6,996 nt of DNA from a virus. Lineage: Duplodnaviria > Heunggongvirae > Uroviricota > Caudoviricetes. Location of the stretch: IMG/VR virus record IMGVR_UViG_2671180417_000012, positions 1 through 6,996 of that record; one strand, 5' to 3'. The stretch's first letter is position 1. Each line of letters begins with the position of its first letter. Both the position numbers and the translations under genes were made by a program. The notes under the pieces were generated by a model. It saw nothing but the letters and a program-made list of their open reading frames with translations. It was not told the origin of the DNA and ran no database searches. Shown here piece after piece: positions 1-6,996 of this stretch.

Positions 1-66
1 GTAGCGGAGCAGGAAGGACATCTGATGGAAATGGAAGCCACGCAAGCACCTTAAAATCACCATCAT
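1..66 (-). CDS. possible 5' part of a further minus-strand ORF running off the left window edge (partial)
   Basis: ATG at 66-64 lies 3 nt after the stop of the 70..264 ORF and in the same frame; 22 open codons to the window edge. No recognisable SD, and too short to judge. Confidence 0.2.
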   Translation of the reverse strand, partial: MMVILRCLRGFHFHQMSFLLRY

Positions 67-69
67 ACA

Positions 70-264
70 CTAAATCAGTAAGTTGGCAGCATTACCGCCT
101 ACGTCAACCCCTAATGGGTAATGAGCTATAATCTTTGCCACCGGCTCTGCTTCCAGCGATGCCAGCGCAATCCGTGCCAGTTCCATTTGTTCACCACGGG
201 TAAGCCCGTTTTCAAGCGGATTTTTAATGAACAATTCAATACGTTCTTTGGTAATAGTGGTCAT
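70..264 (-). CDS. hypothetical small protein (64 aa)
   Basis: ORF with ATG at 264-262 preceded by AAGGAG (reverse complement of 267-272), though the spacing is very short. Same strand as, and co-linear with, the replication operon. No motif recognised. Confidence 0.5.
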   Translation of the reverse strand: MTTITKERIELFIKNPLENGLTRGEQMELARIALASLEAEPVAKIIAHYPLGVDVGGNAANLLI

Positions 265-333
265 GTGTTACTCCTTAACCCGCAGTGCTTTCAACTGATG
301 AGGGGAACAAAATCTTTTCATCAAACCCTGCAT

Positions 334-537
334 TCATATCATGAACAGCAACACACCAATCCATCGACGAACGATTATCAAGAGCCTCCATGATTTCATC
401 CATGCGGCGTAGGTCATACAGGTAAATGCTTTTATCGCCAATGGTGTAAAAGCCAATTTTTTCGGTGATGGACAGCGATCAAGAACTTCCTGTAATTCGT
501 TCAACCATGCCCGTTCTTTTTTTGTCAAAGTTGCCAT
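334..537 (-). CDS. hypothetical small protein (67 aa)
   Basis: ATG at 537-535, 1 nt after the stop of the upstream 72-aa gene (coupled arrangement). The track ORF 334..627 is longer, but the ATG at 537 avoids overlap with the neighbouring gene. No motif recognised. Confidence 0.45.
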   Translation of the reverse strand: MATLTKKERAWLNELQEVLDRCPSPKKLAFTPLAIKAFTCMTYAAWMKSWRLLIIVRRWIGVLLFMI

Positions 538-538
538 A

Positions 539-757
539 TCAGTTTTCCTTATACGGATTAATTTTATTGTGCAGTGTGTTGAATGACGCCCATACCACGT
601 CGTTATACAATTCAGTAACTGGCTCAATTATTTTCCCGATTGCCCAGACAAAAATTAGAGGGGATATCGGTATCATCAATACGATAAACAGAATGAGAAA
701 CAAAAATTCTGTCGCCCTACTTTTTTGCGGATATTCTTTTCTGAATAATGTAGTCAT
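539..757 (-). CDS. small single-pass membrane protein (72 aa)
   Basis: ATG at 757-755. Charged N-terminus followed by one hydrophobic stretch (FLFLILFIVLMIPISPLIFVWAIG) and a polar C-terminal tail. Confidence 0.55.
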   Translation of the reverse strand: MTTLFRKEYPQKSRATEFLFLILFIVLMIPISPLIFVWAIGKIIEPVTELYNDVVWASFNTLHNKINPYKEN

Positions 758-763
758 TTCTTA

Positions 764-779
764 CCGCCCTTTCGGGCGG
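764..779 (-). other. intercistronic GC hairpin (CCGCCC-TTTC-GGGCGG)
   Basis: Perfect 6-bp GC stem with a 4-nt loop between the stop of the 70-aa gene (790) and the start of the 72-aa gene (757). No U-run follows on the minus strand, so it is more likely an RNA stability or processing element than an intrinsic terminator. Confidence 0.4.
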
Positions 780-789
780 CCTCCCGACA

Positions 790-1002
790 TTAATCGTTGT
801 GGTAACTCATGGCTTCATTTGCAGCATCAACCGGATCAACCTCCCACCAGCAATAATTTGGTGCGTTTCCTTCAGGTGTCCACGGTTCTAATTCATTTTT
901 TGCCACATTCTCGTCGCCAGTAATTTTAAAAATCTGCTCAGAGAATTTTTTCACCCACTCGTTATATTTTTCAGTGTTAATAATTTTCTGTGTATTTGAC
1001 AT
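790..1002 (-). CDS. hypothetical small protein (70 aa)
   Basis: ATG at 1002-1000 preceded by GGAGG with 7-nt spacing (reverse complement of 1003-1020). Acidic, Trp-rich C-terminal half. No motif recognised. Confidence 0.6.
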   Translation of the reverse strand: MSNTQKIINTEKYNEWVKKFSEQIFKITGDENVAKNELEPWTPEGNAPNYCWWEVDPVDAANEAMSYHND

Positions 1003-1107
1003 AGATATACCTCCAGTTAAGGATTAAATTTTATTTACAGTGCTGAACTTAATTATTCAGATTTGGATTATGCTTTCTCTTCACGAAGTTCCGATTGTTA
1101 ATTTGGC

Positions 1108-1530
1108 TCACAACAGCACCTTCTGAAAATTACCCTGATAGAAAGCCAGTACACGCTGCATAGCTTCGCTCTTCCGGCACTCGCTACAGATTATGTTTTG
1201 ACGCCTGTCGTAGCGGCGTATTTCTCCGTCTGGTAATGGCCAGATAAGGTCAGGATCAACCACAGATGGTTTCTTCAGATTTGCCCTTGAGAGTTTTTTG
1301 CGGGCGTTTTGCCAGTCCTTACGCGCCTGTTCAGACGGGAATAACCCGTAACCAGAGTTGTATACATCGCCACTGGCAACCAGCTCTCTGGTGAGAACAC
1401 TCATCAGATATCTTGTCGCACCTGTCTTGGCTTCCAGTTGCCGCAACGTCTCGCGACCGCTCAGACGTACAAGTTCAACAACCTGCCCTTTAATTTTTTC
1501 CCGCTCTTCTTGTGTAAATACTTTTGCCAT
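1108..1530 (-). CDS. hypothetical protein with winged-helix-like N-terminal region (140 aa)
   Basis: ATG at 1530-1528 preceded by GGAGG with 5-nt spacing. The track's longer version begins at a TTG at 1545 that would abut the upstream stop; the ATG with SD is preferred. The segment ETLRQLEAKTGATRYLMSVLTRELVASGDV resembles an HTH/winged-helix motif. Confidence 0.65.
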   Translation of the reverse strand: MAKVFTQEEREKIKGQVVELVRLSGRETLRQLEAKTGATRYLMSVLTRELVASGDVYNSGYGLFPSEQARKDWQNARKKLSRANLKKPSVVDPDLIWPLPDGEIRRYDRRQNIICSECRKSEAMQRVLAFYQGNFQKVLL

Positions 1531-1545
1531 AAGCGCCTCCGGCAA

Positions 1546-2316
1546 TCACTTTTCCGATACAACACGGCGGGAAGAATCAGTAATCTGTCGAACAATATCC
1601 CGGTGCTTGTTCAGCTCCCGCAGCGCGGCGCAGACTCGCTCCCACTTCTGAACATCACTTTTCGCCCTGCGCAGCGCCAGGTTTGCCCTGCGAAGGGACG
1701 GAAAAATCAGCTCATCTGCTTGCGTTTCGGTAAACGATGGCAACGGCTGCACAATGTCCGCCACAGTTTCTGTTTTAATTTCTTCCTGTGTTGCGGCTTC
1801 CCGGACTGGTAACGCAGCACCTGCTGGCTGAGGAAAGGCCTTACCATCACTTTCCGTTACCAGCGCGGCTTTCGGCTCTGCTGGTAAATTATCGCCCGGC
1901 ATGCAGTAACGAAATTTACCGTTCTGATTAACGCGTGCCAGCCGCCCCGTTGCGGTTACCACCGCCAGCGTGGAAGCAACCTTGCGAGTACTGACACCGA
2001 ACTTACCCGCCAGTTCCTCACACGTTTTAGCCCCATCCTGACCGATAAACTCAATCATCATGTCTGCGGTAACTTTTTGTTCGACCTCCCCGGTCAGCAT
2101 ATCCTGTGCTTCAGATTTTACTGGCCGCTCTTCGGTTACCCGGGATTCACCTTCGCCAGCCAGAAACCAGGTGTGACCAGTTTTATCAACGACGCCTTTT
2201 CTTTTGAGTTCCCACAGCTCGTTGACAGCCTCTTCACGACTGATTCCAAGGCGAGCTGCCACCACATGTGAAGAGGCTTTTTTCAGTGCTTTCAGTGCGT
2301 CAGATACGGTTTCCAT
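1546..2316 (-). CDS. phage protein with two winged-helix-like segments (256 aa)
   Basis: ATG at 2316-2314 preceded by GGAGG with 8-nt spacing. Two HTH-like segments (AARLGISREEAVNELWELKRKGVV and CEELAGKFGVSTRKVASTLAVVTATGRLARV). Sits immediately downstream of the helicase-loader gene. Confidence 0.75.
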   Translation of the reverse strand: METVSDALKALKKASSHVVAARLGISREEAVNELWELKRKGVVDKTGHTWFLAGEGESRVTEERPVKSEAQDMLTGEVEQKVTADMMIEFIGQDGAKTCEELAGKFGVSTRKVASTLAVVTATGRLARVNQNGKFRYCMPGDNLPAEPKAALVTESDGKAFPQPAGAALPVREAATQEEIKTETVADIVQPLPSFTETQADELIFPSLRRANLALRRAKSDVQKWERVCAALRELNKHRDIVRQITDSSRRVVSEK

Positions 2317-2337
2317 TAAAATTTCCTCCGGACAAAA

Positions 2338-3084
2338 TTACTTCACAACCCTCATATTGCTGACATTTGGACGCCAGCTATCCCAGTTAAACGTCACCCA
2401 TCGACCACCGTTCATGGTCATGCGGTCCATAATCCTCTCACCAAGAAGCGTACTCATTGCGGCATGATTCAGGTTTGTTAACATCCCGACACTGCACAGT
2501 GATGCTGTCCGGCGATCAATTATCTGGTGCAATACCACCTGCTCGTTTTTCGTCTCCCGCTGAACGCCTATTTCATCCAGGACCAGCAAATCAACCCCGC
2601 AAAGCTCCTGTAAAAATTTTTCCCCGGATTTGCCGTTGTCGTAGCTGTCATGCAACACGCTCATGACGTCAGACACGGTGACGATAATCACGCTGCGCCC
2701 CTTCACCATCAGCCGGTTGCCCATCGCCGCTGCAAGGTGATTTTTCCCGGTGCCGGTTTTACCGCTGAACACAAAATTCGTGCACCCGGTCATCAGTTCG
2801 TCAGCTATGGATTTGGCCTGGCTCAGCGCGTATTTTTGCCCGTCGTTCTGCACCTGATAATTTGCAAACGAGCATTTGCTGTGCAGAGGCTGGATGCCCG
2901 AACGATTCAGGATTTTTTCCACCCGCAACTGGCGATTCTGGCGGTTAATCTCCTCGCTGCGTTTTCGTCCTTCAGCAAGTTGCCATTCCCGCCACTCCTC
3001 CACCGTCCGGTACGGTGGAACCGACCCCTGTGGTGCAAGTCTGCGAATACGTTCAAGAACCCCAACTGCCGCAATGTTTTTCAT
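2338..3084 (-). CDS. DnaC-like replicative helicase loader (AAA+ ATPase; phage P-position gene)
   Basis: Walker A FSGKTGTGKNHLAAA and Walker B DLLVLDEIGVQ, plus GMLTNLN, LLGERIMDRM and WVTFNWDSWR, match the motifs of E. coli DnaC as I remember them. Size and position correspond to ydaV of the K-12 Rac prophage. Confidence 0.92.
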   Translation of the reverse strand: MKNIAAVGVLERIRRLAPQGSVPPYRTVEEWREWQLAEGRKRSEEINRQNRQLRVEKILNRSGIQPLHSKCSFANYQVQNDGQKYALSQAKSIADELMTGCTNFVFSGKTGTGKNHLAAAMGNRLMVKGRSVIIVTVSDVMSVLHDSYDNGKSGEKFLQELCGVDLLVLDEIGVQRETKNEQVVLHQIIDRRTASLCSVGMLTNLNHAAMSTLLGERIMDRMTMNGGRWVTFNWDSWRPNVSNMRVVK

Positions 3085-3090
3085 GACACG

Positions 3091-4032
3091 TCACCCCCTG
3101 AATCCCGGCGGTATTTCAGTGTCCGGTTCAGAAATGTGATTCACGCAACGCTGCGCGGGCGAACGCCCCAGGCGGATAACCAGTTCATCCCATTTTTCCC
3201 GGAGTTTTGCCGGACTCATGATGTTTTTTACCCAGAACGAATCCCGCTGGAGACGCCCAAACATTTCACAAATTTGTCTGTGAGTTCTGCCATCCAGCAT
3301 CCGCATTGTCCGCACGTCATTGGCCCATGCAGTCCAGTTGGGTTCTTTCGGTCTCGTGATCTCGCCATCATCGCTGGCCGCCTGCTCGTAAAGACTCACG
3401 ATTCGTCCCCAGACCCACTGTGCGCACACCAAATCTTCCTGACTTCCCCACTGGCGTTTTTTTGCACTGAACACAACCGCGTCAGGGTGTCGGGTTAAAA
3501 AATTCTGTTCAGCCGTCTGCGGGTCCGGTTGCGAAGCGTCCGGACAAGAAGATCTTTTATCTGACGGATCGGGGTCAATCATCGCCCCCCTAATCGGCAG
3601 TTTGTTATCAACAGTTGATCCATCAAAATTTGACGGGTCAACCGTTGAGGGGGCAATATTTGACGGGTCAACTGTTAACGGGTCATTTTTTGCCGGGCTA
3701 ATTTTTCTTTTCGGTTTATATGACTCACGCGCCGCCGCAGCAGCTGCTTCGAGTTTTTCCACATTAAGCCGATAGATATTGCTTACATTACGCCCACCGA
3801 CCTTACGCTCTTCCTTCGTCAGCCAGCCCTCTTTCGCCAGTTCTGCAATAGCCGATTTCACTGTGGATTCACTTCTTGCACCGATCTGACGCCGGATAGT
3901 TTCAATGGCAGGCCATGACACGCCCTCGTCATTGCTGTAGTCTGCAAGACGGGCCATAACCGCCACCCTGGATAAGATCATGCCGGTGAAGGCGCACCCT
4001 TCCCAGACAAGACCATGAAGCTTGCTGCTCAT
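3091..4032 (-). CDS. replication initiator, lambda-O-like (N-terminal HTH; origin iterons inside the gene)
   Basis: ATG at 4032-4030 after a G-run (an alternative GTG at 4047 gives the track's 318 aa). N-terminal HTH-like segment (SWPAIETIRRQIGARSESTVKSAIAELAKEGWL). An internal peptide repeat (TVDPSNIAPSTVDPSNFDGSTVD) corresponds to DNA iterons. Sits directly upstream of the DnaC-like gene. Confidence 0.85.
   Translation of the reverse strand: MSSKLHGLVWEGCAFTGMILSRVAVMARLADYSNDEGVSWPAIETIRRQIGARSESTVKSAIAELAKEGWLTKEERKVGGRNVSNIYRLNVEKLEAAAAAARESYKPKRKISPAKNDPLTVDPSNIAPSTVDPSNFDGSTVDNKLPIRGAMIDPDPSDKRSSCPDASQPDPQTAEQNFLTRHPDAVVFSAKKRQWGSQEDLVCAQWVWGRIVSLYEQAASDDGEITRPKEPNWTAWANDVRTMRMLDGRTHRQICEMFGRLQRDSFWVKNIMSPAKLREKWDELVIRLGRSPAQRCVNHISEPDTEIPPGFRG
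3606..3725. repeat. putative replication origin: three iterons followed by an AT-rich tract
   Basis: Palindromic cores TCAACaGTTGA (about 3608-3618), TCAACcGTTGA (about 3638-3648) and TCAACtGTTaA (about 3668-3678). The last two sit in a longer repeat, ATTTGACGGGTCAAC. The run ttttttgccgggctaatttttcttttcggtttatat follows at 3686-3725. This is the lambda ori layout inside O. Confidence 0.6.
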
Positions 4033-4054
4033 AAAACCCCCGAACACCGTGCTT

Positions 4055-4480
4055 TTAGTGCATCACCACAGCATTCCCTGCCGGGCCGCCGCGATTCATC
4101 TGGTCATACAAAACAACCGCTGACGCAACAAAATCATCGACATCCTTCACCAGCCGATCCCTCCGTTCGACGATCTCACGGTAATATTCAGAACTGTGGC
4201 TGCGCATACGGGCCACCAGCAAAGGCGGCATCGCCTTTTCGATCGCCGGTAACAGAGCCTGCATTTTTTCAACAGCATCAGGGGTGTCTTTCTCTACCCA
4301 GCGGAAAATTTTCTGGGTATTGCGAGCCAGGGCTTCCGGATGGCTGTCGTCATACAGTTCCGGGAACGTCATTCCCAGCTCGAAATACGCTTTGGTAATT
4401 TTCGCAGCCGGTACTTTTTCGCCGTCCGGATGCGCCCAGACATTCATCGCCATGCGGATGTGTTCATGCTTGATTTTCAT
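4055..4480 (-). CDS. ydaT: YdaT-like protein (Rac-prophage family; CII-position gene)
   Basis: ATG at 4480-4478 overlaps the stop of the upstream Cro-like gene (ATGA overlap), with GGAG 7 nt upstream. The sequence (MKIKHEHIRMAMNVWAHPDGE...) matches my recollection of E. coli Rac YdaT; the 141-aa length fits. Confidence 0.85.
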   Translation of the reverse strand: MKIKHEHIRMAMNVWAHPDGEKVPAAKITKAYFELGMTFPELYDDSHPEALARNTQKIFRWVEKDTPDAVEKMQALLPAIEKAMPPLLVARMRSHSSEYYREIVERRDRLVKDVDDFVASAVVLYDQMNRGGPAGNAVVMH

Positions 4481-4779
4481 GAATCAACTCCATCAGATAA
4501 GCATGCACTACAATCACCTTCAGCATGAACTACATGTGTTTGCCCCAAACGAATGCCGCTCGCATACTCAGGCCAAATAAGCTCCCAATCATGGGGTCGT
4601 AGCTCCGCCCTACTTACTTGGCCTTCCGTCGCAGATTCGATCATAAGGGCGCGGGTTGGAGATATAGCTGTTCGTCCAGACGCCATTTGCGATAAGTAAG
4701 ATGGCGATACACCAAGTCTGGCCGCGAATTTCTTAGCATCACCAACCCTTAATGATTTAATAAACTCTTTTAATGTCAT
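4477..4779 (-). CDS. ydaS: Cro-like HTH protein, YdaS family
   Basis: ATG at 4779-4777 with SD GAGGAAGG (reverse complement of 4782-4789). HTH segment AKKFAARLGVSPSYLSQMASGRTAISP. First gene of the minus operon, divergent from the regulator gene. Confidence 0.85.
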   Translation of the reverse strand: MTLKEFIKSLRVGDAKKFAARLGVSPSYLSQMASGRTAISPTRALMIESATEGQVSRAELRPHDWELIWPEYASGIRLGQTHVVHAEGDCSACLSDGVDS

Positions 4780-4876
4780 ACCTTCCTCGGTTTAGTGTTT
4801 TTTTGCGAGTTTAGTGTTTAATAAACCATTAAGTCAAGTATTTGCTTGTTTAGTGATTACTAAAGATAATTACCAC
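4780..4876. promoter_or_regulatory. divergent promoter/operator region (OR-like)
   Basis: Three direct repeats GTTTAGTG(T/A)TT at 4790-4800, 4809-4819 and 4848-4858. Plus-strand promoter: -35 TTGCTT (4842-4847), 17-nt spacer, -10 GATAAT (4865-4870), placing the start about at the ATG at 4877. Minus-strand promoter: -35 TTGACT (reverse complement of 4832-4837), 18-nt spacer, -10 TAAACT (reverse complement of 4808-4813). Confidence 0.6.
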
Positions 4877-5248
4877 ATGCAAAAAAAAGAAATTCGCCGT
4901 TTACGTCTCAAGGAGTGGTTTAAAGATAAAACTCTGCCACCCAAAGAGAAGAGCTACCTATCTCAACTAATGAGTGGGAGAGCCTCGTTTGGAGAAAAGG
5001 CTGCCAGAAGAATAGAGCAAACATACGGGATGCCGGAAGGGTATCTGGATGCGGAATACGCAGAACAACCGGGGGTTTCTCCACCACATGCAGGGTTAAC
5101 GTCTAATCAACTGGAATTATTGCAGATTTTTTCAGCCTTCCCTGAGGATGAGCAACGCCAGATAATCAGCGAGTTAAAGCAGAAAAAAGAATCAATGGAA
5201 GATCTCATAGCGAGATGGATTGCGGCGCAAAAATGCCGCCGCGCCTGA
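4877..5248 (+). CDS. paaR2: HTH transcriptional regulator (PaaR2-like; occupies the repressor position)
   Basis: ATG at 4877 with no SD, 7 nt after a GATAAT -10 (leaderless, like lambda cI from PRM). HTH segment SYLSQLMSGRASFGEKAARRIEQTYGM. The track's upstream GTG at 4814 would overlap the operators and is not preferred. The name is from memory of the O157:H7 paaR2-paaA2-parE2 locus. Confidence 0.8.
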   Translation: MQKKEIRRLRLKEWFKDKTLPPKEKSYLSQLMSGRASFGEKAARRIEQTYGMPEGYLDAEYAEQPGVSPPHAGLTSNQLELLQIFSAFPEDEQRQIISELKQKKESMEDLIARWIAAQKCRRA

Positions 5249-5268
5249 GTTATAAAACCGGAGGAAAC

Positions 5269-5460
5269 ATGAATAGAGCCCTTTCACCAATGGTTTCTGA
5301 ATTTGAAACCATTGAACAAGAAAACAGTTACAACGAATGGCTGCGTGCGAAAGTAGCAACGAGCCTTGCAGATCCGCGCCCAGCAATTCCCCATGACGAA
5401 GTTGAGCGCAGAATGGCAGAACGCTTTGCTAAGATGCGCAAGGAACGGAGCAAGCAGTAA
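5269..5460 (+). CDS. paaA2: small antitoxin of a ParE-type toxin-antitoxin module (PaaA2-like, 63 aa)
   Basis: ATG at 5269 preceded by GGAGGA (5260-5265). 63-aa charged, helix-prone protein, immediately upstream of the ParE-like gene with a 1-nt gap (TAA 5458-5460, ATG 5462). The track's upstream start at 5215 overlaps the regulator gene and is not preferred. Confidence 0.8.
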   Translation: MNRALSPMVSEFETIEQENSYNEWLRAKVATSLADPRPAIPHDEVERRMAERFAKMRKERSKQ

Positions 5461-5461
5461 A

Positions 5462-5740
5462 ATGTTACCCGTGTTATGGCTTGAAAGCGCAGATACCGAC
5501 CTAGATGATATAACTAGTTATATTGCTCGTTTCGACATAGATGCGGCTGAACGCTTATGGCAGCGATTAAGGGGTTGTGTGCTGCCGTTATCCGAACATC
5601 CGTATTTATACCCACCAAGCGACAGAGTACCTGGCTTGCGTGAGATTGTAGCCCACCCTAACTATATAATTCTATACCGCGTAACAACATCAAGCGTTGA
5701 AGTAGTAAACGTGATCCACGCAAGACGCCAGTTTCCCTAA
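5462..5740 (+). CDS. parE2: ParE/RelE-superfamily toxin (ParE2-like, 92 aa)
   Basis: ATG at 5462 (MLPVLWLESADTD...). Size, composition and conserved C-terminal region (HPNYIILYRV...VEVVNVIHARRQFP) fit the ParE family. Operon partner of the small antitoxin. The track's longer start at 5366 would overlap the antitoxin by 95 nt. Confidence 0.85.
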   Translation: MLPVLWLESADTDLDDITSYIARFDIDAAERLWQRLRGCVLPLSEHPYLYPPSDRVPGLREIVAHPNYIILYRVTTSSVEVVNVIHARRQFP

Positions 5741-5755
5741 CTTTCACTACCAATA

Positions 5756-5808
5756 GAAACATAACAACCGCAACGACTTTATCAAAAGCGTTGTGTTTGT
5801 TATGTTCC
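5756..5808 (+). terminator. long imperfect inverted repeat, possible terminator after the toxin gene
   Basis: About 18 bp pair between 5757-5775 and 5789-5806 (one mismatch, one G-U), with a 13-nt loop. A T-rich segment GGTTTAGTTTTT follows a few nt later. Begins 16 nt after the parE2-like stop. Confidence 0.4.
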
Positions 5809-5855
5809 GCGGTTTAGTTTTTACTTGACTTAAGTTTAATATTCATTAAACCAAA
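5809..5855 (+). promoter_or_regulatory. putative PL-like promoter with operator copy (OL-like)
   Basis: CGGTTTAGT (5810-5818) repeats the operator motif of the 4780-4876 region. TACTTGACTTAA (5822-5833) is identical to the context of the -35 TTGACT of the minus-strand promoter at 4832-4837 and contains the palindrome ACTTAAGT. No confident -10 (best TAAACC at 16-nt spacing). Confidence 0.4.
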
Positions 5856-6170
5856 AATACCAACCCACCCCGCCCCACAGAACGCAGGGAAATACTTCGA
5901 GTTACCCGGCAGTGGTCAGGGGTTAAGTAGCCAGCCCGAGGCGTATGAACATGACGGCAGGGTTCAACTTTAATAACTATGCAGCAGGTTTTTGTTCCGC
6001 TACCCCGGCGTTAAGGGGAAACAGAGGGTTTCTCAGTGGGCGAAGTCAAACATCAGAATGGAAGGCATCCCGGGATCGGCAAAGAAGCAGCAATGGCGCT
6101 TTATATTGACATCAGCGCCATTGCAGGACAGGTAAGAGTTATCAGAGCGGTAACTAAGCGGTATGCGCCT

Positions 6171-6371
6171 TTACTTCAGAAAGTCTCTGGTGAGTGCACC
6201 GAAGATATTGTCAACGATTTCGTCATCGAACTGCGAGGACTCATCTTCAGTTACAAGGTGACCACAATTTTTGCAGATGGCTCCCGCGAAACTGTCAGAG
6301 CCCTGCGGCTTAAAGGATGTGTCAAAGACTTCGCCACCACATTCTGGGCAAGAAAACTTGATTGTATTCAT
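6171..6371 (-). CDS. zinc-ribbon mini-protein (66 aa, CPxCG...CxxCG)
   Basis: ATG at 6371-6369 with SD GAGAGG/GAGGAA 8 nt upstream. Two CxxCG knuckles (CPECGG, CKNCGH) 17 residues apart, and an acidic C-terminal tail. Codon usage looks more E. coli-like than that of the overlapping plus-strand ORF 6036..6392, which uses AGA three times. Confidence 0.6.
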   Translation of the reverse strand: MNTIKFSCPECGGEVFDTSFKPQGSDSFAGAICKNCGHLVTEDESSQFDDEIVDNIFGALTRDFLK

Positions 6372-6463
6372 AACCAATTTCCTCTCGAGTAACAGACCCC
6401 TCAGAGGATACCACCTCGCCTGACGTGGTTAAAAGCAGGCAACGCTAACCACAAGGAGCCGAC

Positions 6464-6682
6464 ATGCAGAAACGAGAACCCGTCATCATCGCGCCAGACT
6501 ATACCGATGATGAACTTTATGAGTGGATGCACCAGAAAATTAATGCAGCGCAGGATCTGAAATGGGCCAATGAAGCCAGGGCTAAGCAGGCTGAAAATCT
6601 GTCCGCTCTGGAGCAGGATATCACCAATCTGGAAAAAGCAGCGGCATTAAGCATTGCCAGAATGATTACATACCCGCGTTAG
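6464..6682 (+). CDS. hypothetical small protein (72 aa)
   Basis: ATG at 6464 preceded by AAGGAG (6453-6458) with 5-nt spacing. Charged, helix-prone sequence. On the same strand as the presumed PL-like transcription. Confidence 0.6.
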   Translation: MQKREPVIIAPDYTDDELYEWMHQKINAAQDLKWANEARAKQAENLSALEQDITNLEKAAALSIARMITYPR

Positions 6683-6699
6683 TAGCTAATCAACAAAGC

Positions 6700-6996
6700 T
6701 AAGGTTAGTAATTAAGGAGTTCTCCACGGGTGAGGTGGAGTGCGTGCGCCGGACACGGGTGAGCATCCGGCACTGACAGTTTACTGAAAGGATATTTCCC
6801 TGAAAAGTCAGACCATAACGCGAAAGCGCACGGCGAGGTAGCTGGTTCATAGATAGCCTGTCGTTAAATTTTCGTCGACCGTGCGCTTCCGGTTGTGGCA
6901 ACCCGCGAAATGGCGCGGCGGTAAGTATGGCGGGGTTATTCCTTCCCCCGTTGAGGACACCGGGTTGTCAGGTTGACCATACGCTTAAGTGACAAC
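6700..6996 (+). other. GC-rich, hairpin-dense non-coding region (candidate structured RNA), continuing past the window end
   Basis: No plausible ORF on either strand. Adjacent hairpins CTCCAC-GGGTGAG-GTGGAG (6722-6740) and GCCGGA-CACGGGTGAGCA-TCCGGC (6748-6771) both display the decamer CACGGGTGAG. Further stems: GCGCACGG (6826-6833) with CCGTGCGC (6880-6887), CCGCG-AAATGG-CGCGG (6903-6918), GTATGG (6925-6930) with CCATAC (6977-6982). Confidence 0.3.

Follow-up and report, generated by a model that had tools for sequence, protein, structure and literature searches.

The overlapping ORF pair and its locus

We analysed a window of 6,996 nucleotides (nt), positions 1 to 6,996 of the IMG/VR virus record IMGVR_UViG_2671180417_000012, in which a small zinc-ribbon gene on the minus strand is completely embedded in a longer open reading frame (ORF) on the plus strand. 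The window originates from the immunity region of the lambdoid cryptic prophage CP-933P (strain EDL933), named Sp12 in strain Sakai, of Escherichia coli O157:H7, and O157:H7 chromosomes showed 99.4% identity to a 961-base query around 6036-6392. At this 99.4% identical locus the RefSeq annotation lists a RelE/ParE toxin followed by ydfC and, between the two and on the opposite strand, an 'ECs_2282 family putative zinc-binding protein', and Pfam recognised PaaA2 and ParE directly upstream of the overlapping ORF pair. The pair consists of the following features, given in amino acids (aa) or codons:

6171-6371, minus strand: zinc-ribbon gene, 66 aa, ECs_2282 family (NF047912, four Cys, profile search)
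6093-6392, plus strand: conserved core of the plus-strand ORF, 99 aa, phrog_21318 (PHROG match, openness, substitution pattern, AlphaFold2)
6036-6092, plus strand: in-frame 19-codon leader of the 118-codon form, open in the window and not conserved

The initial annotation of this DNA had placed a 118-codon ORF at 6036-6392 over the zinc-ribbon gene and had assigned cysteine knuckles to the zinc protein and ribosome-binding sites to both frames. All of this could be verified in the sequence and in the list of ORFs, which gives the plus-strand frame at 6036-6392 (118 aa, starting with GTG, with GAGGG 7 nt upstream of GTG 6036) and the minus-strand frame at 6171-6377 (68 aa when started at TTG, 66 aa from ATG 6371). 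Both frames are codon-for-codon in register, i.e. position 1 of one codon is position 3 of the other, and a stop in the plus frame requires a TTA, CTA or TCA codon in the zinc gene. The rare codons that had been pointed out in the plus ORF are present as well (AGA four times, GGA three times and CGA once in 6093-6392); they are forced by the TCT, TCC and TCG codons of the zinc gene.

Two sets of sequences were used to compare the locus, a deep comparison of 11 diverged sequences and a polymorphism set of 88 E. coli-type copies (80 IMG/VR loci and others), in which the IMG/VR loci are 92-100% identical and were obtained by a close-alignment search. None of the 11 diverged homologues has lost either ORF, down to approximately 45-53% identity of the zinc protein. 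Among complete E. coli genomes, 937 of 5,426 contain the module.

The zinc-ribbon protein

The zinc protein contains the two knuckles CPECGG (C8 and C11) and CKNCGH (C33 and C36), which are followed by an acidic C-terminal helix. It scores 57.3 bits with the NCBIfam model NF047912 (cutoff 37), whereby residues 4-59 cover model positions 1-56 of 60. Close relatives with 53-70% identity occur in Citrobacter, Klebsiella, Enterobacter and Serratia, and the alignment of this close family has 29 invariant columns including the stretch SDSFAG-C..CGH.VTEDES.QFD; of the four Cys, three do not vary and the remaining one is kept in 9 of 10 sequences, the exception being a probably frameshifted singleton. 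A profile search among 1.84 billion representatives resulted in 66 clusters of relatives (at 50% identity) with a length of mostly 63-75 aa. The distant relatives mostly align from residue 1 and have the same architecture, and some members of the family were found in unrelated genome contexts. When 32 diverse relatives were aligned (27 of them match phrog_4852), the four Cys were the sole invariant columns.

Sites that are nonsynonymous in the zinc frame and synonymous in the plus frame have a p-distance of 0.29 compared to 0.61 for the synonymous sites of the extension, the part of the plus ORF outside the zinc gene, which corresponds to 0.48 times this proxy (confidence interval (CI) 0.32-0.69; 11 sequences). 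In the 88 copies, zinc-nonsynonymous variants amount to 0.26 per site versus 0.67 for extension synonymous ones. Judged from these rates, the embedded zinc frame is under purifying selection. Taken together with the passed NCBIfam cutoff, the conserved Cys and the 66 clusters of relatives, the comparative evidence marks the zinc-ribbon gene as clearly real, as had been proposed initially.

The protein can be regarded as a putative zinc binder of a C4 zinc-ribbon family of approximately 65 aa, and most plausibly it represents a small protein-binding or nucleic-acid-binding factor made by the prophage. Its AlphaFold2 model is of low confidence (predicted local distance difference test (pLDDT) 54.6) and not good enough to search for similar folds. 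The zinc protein is acidic and hydrophilic, whereas the plus-strand protein has a soluble-looking helix/strand composition; neither qualifies as a small hydrophobic or membrane toxin, which is the criterion for type I toxin-antitoxin systems, and Rfam gave no family match. Furthermore, the PADLOC defence-system models gave no match below E = 0.001, profile searches against solved structures with either protein gave no match, and literature searches on ECs2282, the protein accessions and the family ids retrieved no paper mentioning either family.

Two variants of the gene were seen in other loci. A truncated copy (L021:1-341) has the zinc promoter, the ribosome-binding site and the N-terminal knuckles fused to an unrelated C-terminus; it overlaps the end of a gene for a major facilitator superfamily (MFS) transporter and has the appearance of a prophage remnant left at a chromosomal junction. 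A distant zinc relative is located in two loci of 38-40% G+C (L022:3001-3225 and L023:2503-2727), where the in-register antisense frame is stop-free over 75 codons and has neither a start codon nor an upstream extension.

Predicted expression signals of the zinc-ribbon gene

The following signals were assigned to the zinc gene:

6381-6386, minus strand: Shine-Dalgarno (SD) sequence GAGAGG, 9 nt before ATG 6371
6405-6433, minus strand: promoter-like site composed of TTTAAC (6433-6428), a 17-nt spacer, TG (6413-6412) and TATCCT (6410-6405), from homologue comparison
6078-6124, minus strand: terminator-like hairpin with an 11-bp GC-rich stem (6124-6114/6100-6090) and a T-rich tail (6089-6078), from folding and covariation

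All homologues have a purine-rich AGGA/GGAG run 6-9 nt before the zinc ATG. A -10-like TATC[CT]T approximately 30 nt upstream of this ATG is conserved, with a -35-like hexamer 17 nt further upstream, and most homologues keep the extended -10 form TGnTATC[CT]T while the flanking sequence diverges; the L003 clade has TATATCCT at the -10 site and the TG is absent. Downstream of the gene, a GC-rich hairpin with a T-rich tail is found on the zinc-sense strand approximately 45 nt past the zinc stop in 11 of 11 homologues. In the window this hairpin (6124-6090) has a folding energy of -21 kcal/mol (z = -4.3). Pairing in the stem is kept by compensatory changes (CG/UA at one pair), and the stems of most homologues use G-U pairs, which are A-C mismatches on the opposite strand and thus pair only in the zinc-sense RNA. 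The covariation of the hairpin is 0.239 compared to 0.169 +/- 0.026 in shuffled alignments, a value reached by 0 of 500 shuffles, and slid registers give far less pairing. Hence, the zinc gene appears to form an autonomous unit of approximately 320 nt with predicted promoter, gene and terminator, an anatomy of the moron type.

The plus-strand ORF

The plus ORF matches phrog_21318 over the full length of the profile (1-99 of 99, E 2.1e-67). The initial annotation had let it begin at GTG 6036, which is not borne out. In the 88 copies, 6036-6092 shows 0.45 nonsynonymous versus 0.46 synonymous variants per site and 5 indel variants, and GTG 6036 was rejected as start since this leader is neutral and carries indels. 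ATG 6093 is instead the start common to the clades; all 11 diverged homologues have an in-frame start adjoining a purine-rich run, the equivalent of which in the window is ATG 6093. Between 6093 and 6392 no nonsense or indel variant was detected in the 88 copies, compared to two nonsense alleles of the zinc gene. The frame extends approximately 26 codons past the zinc stop and is conserved there as T-L-x-[VI]-[DN]-x-S-A-[VI]-x-G-Q-x-[RK]-[IV]-[IV]-...-P. AlphaFold2 predicts a helix-helix-hairpin-helix arrangement for the plus protein with a pLDDT of 73.8, calculated from 12 sequences only.

In every examined locus with enough flanking genes, the plus ORF runs in the direction of the early operon and the zinc gene is opposed to it. 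The placement itself differs. The module is found in the PL direction, after the cI/repressor gene, in the window and in L005-L008, L013-L015 and L018-L019, and it is found in the PR operon, directly after cro, in L003, L004 and L016. Because the placements differ and the flanks are otherwise unrelated, the module appears to move as a unit, which is bounded by the start of the plus ORF and the zinc promoter.

Selection on the plus frame

Outside the overlap the plus frame carries a coding signature. Within the extension (6096-6170, 25 codons outside the zinc gene), the parsimony changes on the 11-sequence tree are distributed as 37/34/71 over the three codon positions (p = 3e-5), and the third-position excess occurs in both halves, i.e. 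over the hairpin (12/11/30) and from the hairpin to the zinc stop (25/23/41, p = 0.0085). In the 11 sequences the plus frame is the sole stop-free frame of six in the extension, the others containing 5-26 stops, and its ratio of nonsynonymous to synonymous substitution rates (dN/dS) of 0.29 is the lowest of the six frames. The 88 copies contain 0.38 nonsynonymous versus 0.67 synonymous variants per site in the extension and no indels.

Within the overlap, the p-distances in the 11 sequences are 0.133 for sites nonsynonymous in both frames, 0.291 for sites synonymous in the plus frame and nonsynonymous in the zinc frame, and 0.409 for sites synonymous in the zinc frame and nonsynonymous in the plus frame, compared to 0.611 for the synonymous sites of the extension, which served as neutral proxy. 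The zinc-synonymous sites thus evolve at 0.68 times the neutral proxy (bootstrap CI 0.50-0.90). A similar picture was obtained for the loci L005 and L008, between which the proportion of synonymous differences (pS) is 0.45 in the zinc gene versus 0.62 and 0.75 in neighbour genes (Fisher p = 0.014) and 0.63 in the extension; the zinc protein is nonetheless more diverged in amino acids than the neighbours. A low pS of the zinc gene despite a diverged protein is the pattern expected of a second constraint on synonymous sites, which would be consistent with a coding plus frame.

In view of the coding signature outside the overlap, the intact frame in all homologues and the constant co-orientation with the operon, the proposal to annotate the minus-strand gene alone is not supported, and the longer plus ORF is probably real, too. 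The per-frame dN/dS comparison across homologues, which had been suggested as a check, supports the zinc frame and the plus frame outside the overlap; inside the overlap, the plus frame is supported by the slowed zinc-synonymous sites at deep divergence and not by the 88 copies.

Gene or shadow ORF

On balance, we slightly favour reading the locus as an antisense dual-coding module, compact and mobile, with a gene on each strand. Several observations weigh against this reading. Within the overlap of the 88 copies, plus-nonsynonymous/zinc-synonymous variants reach 0.70 per site versus 0.67 for extension synonymous variants, hence a constraint on the plus frame in the overlap is not visible at the level of E. 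coli polymorphism. The OLGenie-style pNN/pSN ratio of 0.46 for the plus frame had to be dropped as evidence, since single-coding neighbours gave 0.48 and 0.75. Moreover, no relatives of the plus protein outside the module were found, and Foldseek searches with its model against PDB and BFVD gave nothing below E 0.1. At the RNA level, ATG 6093 has a weak SD in the window and is buried in a stem of -19.9 kcal/mol on the plus RNA, the purine run before this ATG is also the complement of the terminator T-tract, and the conserved T-L and S-A residues of the plus protein coincide with the hairpin arms.

An in-register antisense frame is the antisense frame most easily kept open and the one most prone to shadow ORFs, and this also counts against a second gene: when synonymous codons of the zinc gene were redrawn from the codon usage of the window, the antisense frame was stop-free in 15.6% of the trials. 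Since this frame is open so often by chance and few synonymous changes occur at zinc Ser/Leu codons, stop-codon avoidance was dropped as evidence for the plus ORF. The chance of a further 26-45 open codons upstream is 0.12-0.29, and the arrangement in a single sequence is only mildly unusual, with approximately 0.02-0.05 by chance. In the comparison of homologues, it is the conservation, not the lone sequence, that exceeds chance.

These points would also fit the assumption that the zinc gene alone is functional, the plus ORF representing a shadow ORF and the extension the 3' untranslated region (UTR) and terminator of the zinc gene. Codon usage alone opens the frame often enough, the overlap of the 88 copies lacks plus-frame constraint, control genes match the pNN/pSN-type ratio, and the hairpin with its T-tract can account for the conserved region taken as SD and ATG. 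The distant low-GC relative has an open antisense frame without start or extension, and the Prokaryotic Genome Annotation Pipeline (PGAP) usually names the zinc gene only. However, a 3' UTR should not give a third-position excess (37/34/71, and still 25/23/41 outside the hairpin), nor should it be the only one of six frames to stay free of stops in the 11 diverged sequences, and the extension is free of indels though the flanks carry several. Furthermore, a shadow ORF leaves the co-orientation with the early operon and the slow evolution of synonymous sites in the zinc gene unexplained. We consider it unlikely that the plus ORF is a mere shadow.

Natural alleles and annotation history

Natural alleles interrupt the zinc frame and spare the plus frame. 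The allele E14* of the zinc gene (6332 C>A) occurs in 20 of the 88 copies, including the O26:H11 strain 11368 and the PPompW prophages, and amounts to no more than an F to L exchange in the plus frame, and E44* (6242 C>A), found in one of the 88 copies, is silent in the plus frame. Such nonsense alleles were seen in L025, L026 and IMG/VR loci, and the plus ORF is intact there. The two frames are therefore already uncoupled by natural alleles, which represent ready-made frame-specific mutants.

The annotation of the locus has been inconsistent. In the original EDL933 annotation the 118-aa plus ORF was entered as AAK16988.1, 'unknown protein encoded by cryptic prophage CP-933P', and the 118-aa form is also annotated by Rapid Annotation using Subsystem Technology (RAST) and in manually curated phage records. 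PGAP usually reports the zinc gene and names the 99-aa plus ORF where the zinc gene has E14*. Even for identical DNA (equivalent to window positions 6030-6440, in the RefSeq genomes L027 and L028), PGAP names a 99-aa 'hypothetical protein' in one and the 66-aa zinc gene in the other. None of the annotated records examined contains both ORFs. Hence, annotation meets a practical problem here: whichever source is consulted, PGAP, RAST or the original EDL933 annotation, only one of the two ORFs is reported.

The listing of the plus ORF alone in the original EDL933 annotation, by RAST and in several phage records, together with the two natural zinc nonsense alleles, the commoner of which is present in 20 of 88 copies, could be taken to mean that the plus ORF is the sole gene and that the zinc frame is a by-product of its conservation. 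Nevertheless, this assumption is close to refuted and we give it hardly any weight. It is opposed by the many distant zinc relatives, which agree in length, keep all four Cys invariant and occur also in other contexts, one of them with a startless antisense frame, by the conserved SD, the -10 element and the sense-specific hairpin that the zinc gene has of its own, and by the clear depletion of zinc-nonsynonymous changes.

Position in the early-left operon

The two ORFs lie next to a studied regulatory region. The paaR2-paaA2-parE2 locus and its switch were investigated in PMC8630535, where the activity of the promoter PL933P and its repression by PaaR2 and YdaS were shown experimentally. The following features flank the ORF pair:

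5741-5858, plus strand: PL933P promoter/operator fragment, to which the primers of the PL933P-gfp construct map (PMC8630535)
6464-6682, plus strand: ydfC, the next gene of the early-left operon (RefSeq annotation of the 99.4% identical locus; phrog_1744)

The promoter fragment contains TTGACT at 5825-5830 and operator repeats of the GGTTTAGT type, which resemble those at 4788-4860. Because the PL933P-gfp fragment maps to 5741-5858 in plus direction, early-left transcription crosses the ORF pair on the plus strand, and this agrees with the initial view that the zinc gene is oriented against the early-left transcript.

The approximately 230 nt separating PL933P from ATG 6093 (5859-6092) are without annotated function. 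Small plus-strand ORFs at 5945-6109 and 5992-6135 extend into the region of the hairpin and ATG 6093, and the part of this interval that was compared across copies (6000-6092) is polymorphic and contains several indels. Upstream, the ORF list gives paaA2 as 5215-5460 (81 aa) and parE2 as 5366-5740 (124 aa), which is longer than in RefSeq (192 and 279 nt). Judged from their place in the matching record, the RefSeq-length genes would lie at approximately 5269-5460 and 5462-5740. The gene paaR2 was reported to be leaderless (PMC8630535). Downstream of ydfC, the approximately 300 nt of 6686-6996 contain unconvincing ORFs only. Rfam applied to the whole window returned only two chance-level matches and DicF was not found among them; the window probably ends before dicF, because in K-12 dicF begins approximately 340 nt after ydfC.

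The position inside an operon allows a further explanation, according to which the plus ORF is translated and selection acts on the act of translation, since ribosomes on this part of the early RNA would prevent Rho-dependent polarity on ydfC-dicF-dicB or, in the PR placement, on the replication genes. In addition, the ribosomes could keep the early RNA from forming a duplex with the zinc mRNA. Rho is invoked here on the basis of how polarity works in general. Such a function would be in line with a plus ORF that is always open, provided with a start and co-oriented with the operon, with an overlap in which the E. coli copies show weak or no constraint on amino acids, and with the ORF list and the RefSeq annotation, in which no N-like antiterminator gene was seen between PL933P and the plus ORF. 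However, the dN/dS of 0.29 in the extension indicates selection on the sequence and not on openness alone, AlphaFold2 gives a compact fold of the plus protein, and the approximately 230 nt upstream of the plus ORF are untranslated anyway. We therefore regard selection on translation as such as quite improbable.

A possible two-product module

Returning to the dual-coding reading, the zinc unit sits antisense within the PL or PR early operons of lambdoid prophages of enterobacteria. The zinc gene belongs to a widespread and apparently old family of approximately 65 aa, and the plus ORF, known only with the module in Enterobacterales prophages, would be younger. The plus ORF appears to have no promoter of its own and would be read from the early-operon transcript, here from PL933P. 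Judging from this anatomy and the published regulation of PL933P, PaaR2 would repress PL in the lysogen, so that the zinc-ribbon protein alone would be made. Upon derepression, transcription from PL would cross the module and the plus protein would be made, while expression of the zinc gene may be damped by convergent transcription and the formation of RNA duplexes. It is conceivable that the plus gene was overprinted on the old zinc unit including its 3' UTR and terminator, and that the two products are mutually exclusive between the lysogen and the state of PL/PR derepression. This overprinting with mutual exclusion of the products is tentative and in our judgement rather doubtful.

If it is true, one stretch of 350 bp would act as a two-state, two-product switch, adjoining the characterised PaaR2/YdaS/PL933P switch. 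For bacteria and their phages, few convincing cases of antisense protein-coding overlap have been put forward, and these are disputed. The unusual likely order of ages, with an old embedded gene and a young containing ORF, would give a clean case of overprinting. If the zinc gene alone is functional, the locus would represent an ordinary orphan moron.

Comparison with known systems

With NF047912 and phrog_4852 the zinc protein of the window shares the CxxC...CxxC spacing, the length and the TEDE/TEDD motif, and no difference was seen. Other small C4 zinc-ribbon proteins encoded in early-left operons of prophages are the Lar-like proteins (PF14354, phrog_6422/599). The zinc protein of the window matches phrog_6422 only with E 0.0098 and without a significant stretch, and PF14354 was matched at E <= 0.001 by 1 of the 32 zinc relatives only, with a few weak Lar-like matches otherwise. 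We do not count it as Lar-like. The plus ORF is a full-length member of phrog_21318, and the original EDL933 annotation contains an identical 118-aa form. In the phrog_21318 records examined it is annotated as an ordinary gene, and none of them notes a zinc-ribbon gene lying wholly inside on the other strand.

With respect to orientation, the analogy to sieB of the Rac prophage, which the initial annotation had drawn, holds, since sieB is carried on the opposite strand to racR-ydaG-ydaF-kilR-recET and adjoins the immunity region. For sieB, unlike for the zinc gene, no annotation places it inside an opposite-strand ORF. No homology was found in either case compared: hhalign of SieB with the profile of the plus ORF (not of the zinc protein) gave a probability of 0.3%, and no homology to YdaE of Rac was found.

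The closest parallels in organisation come from E. coli O157:H7 itself, for which embedded antisense pairs were proposed, among them ano/ECs2385 (PMC5960689), asa (PMC6294744) and three more (PMC9927249). As described there, one ORF is likewise fully embedded antisense in the other and automatic annotation keeps only one of the two. The proposed pairs consist of a short novel ORF inside a long established gene and are based on RNA-seq and ribosome profiling (Ribo-seq), whereas the evidence given here is comparative. Moreover, ano is described there as lying in frame -3, while the overlap studied here is in register. Finally, compared to these pairs, the present locus appears reversed, since the embedded gene would be the old and widespread partner and the longer ORF the young one.

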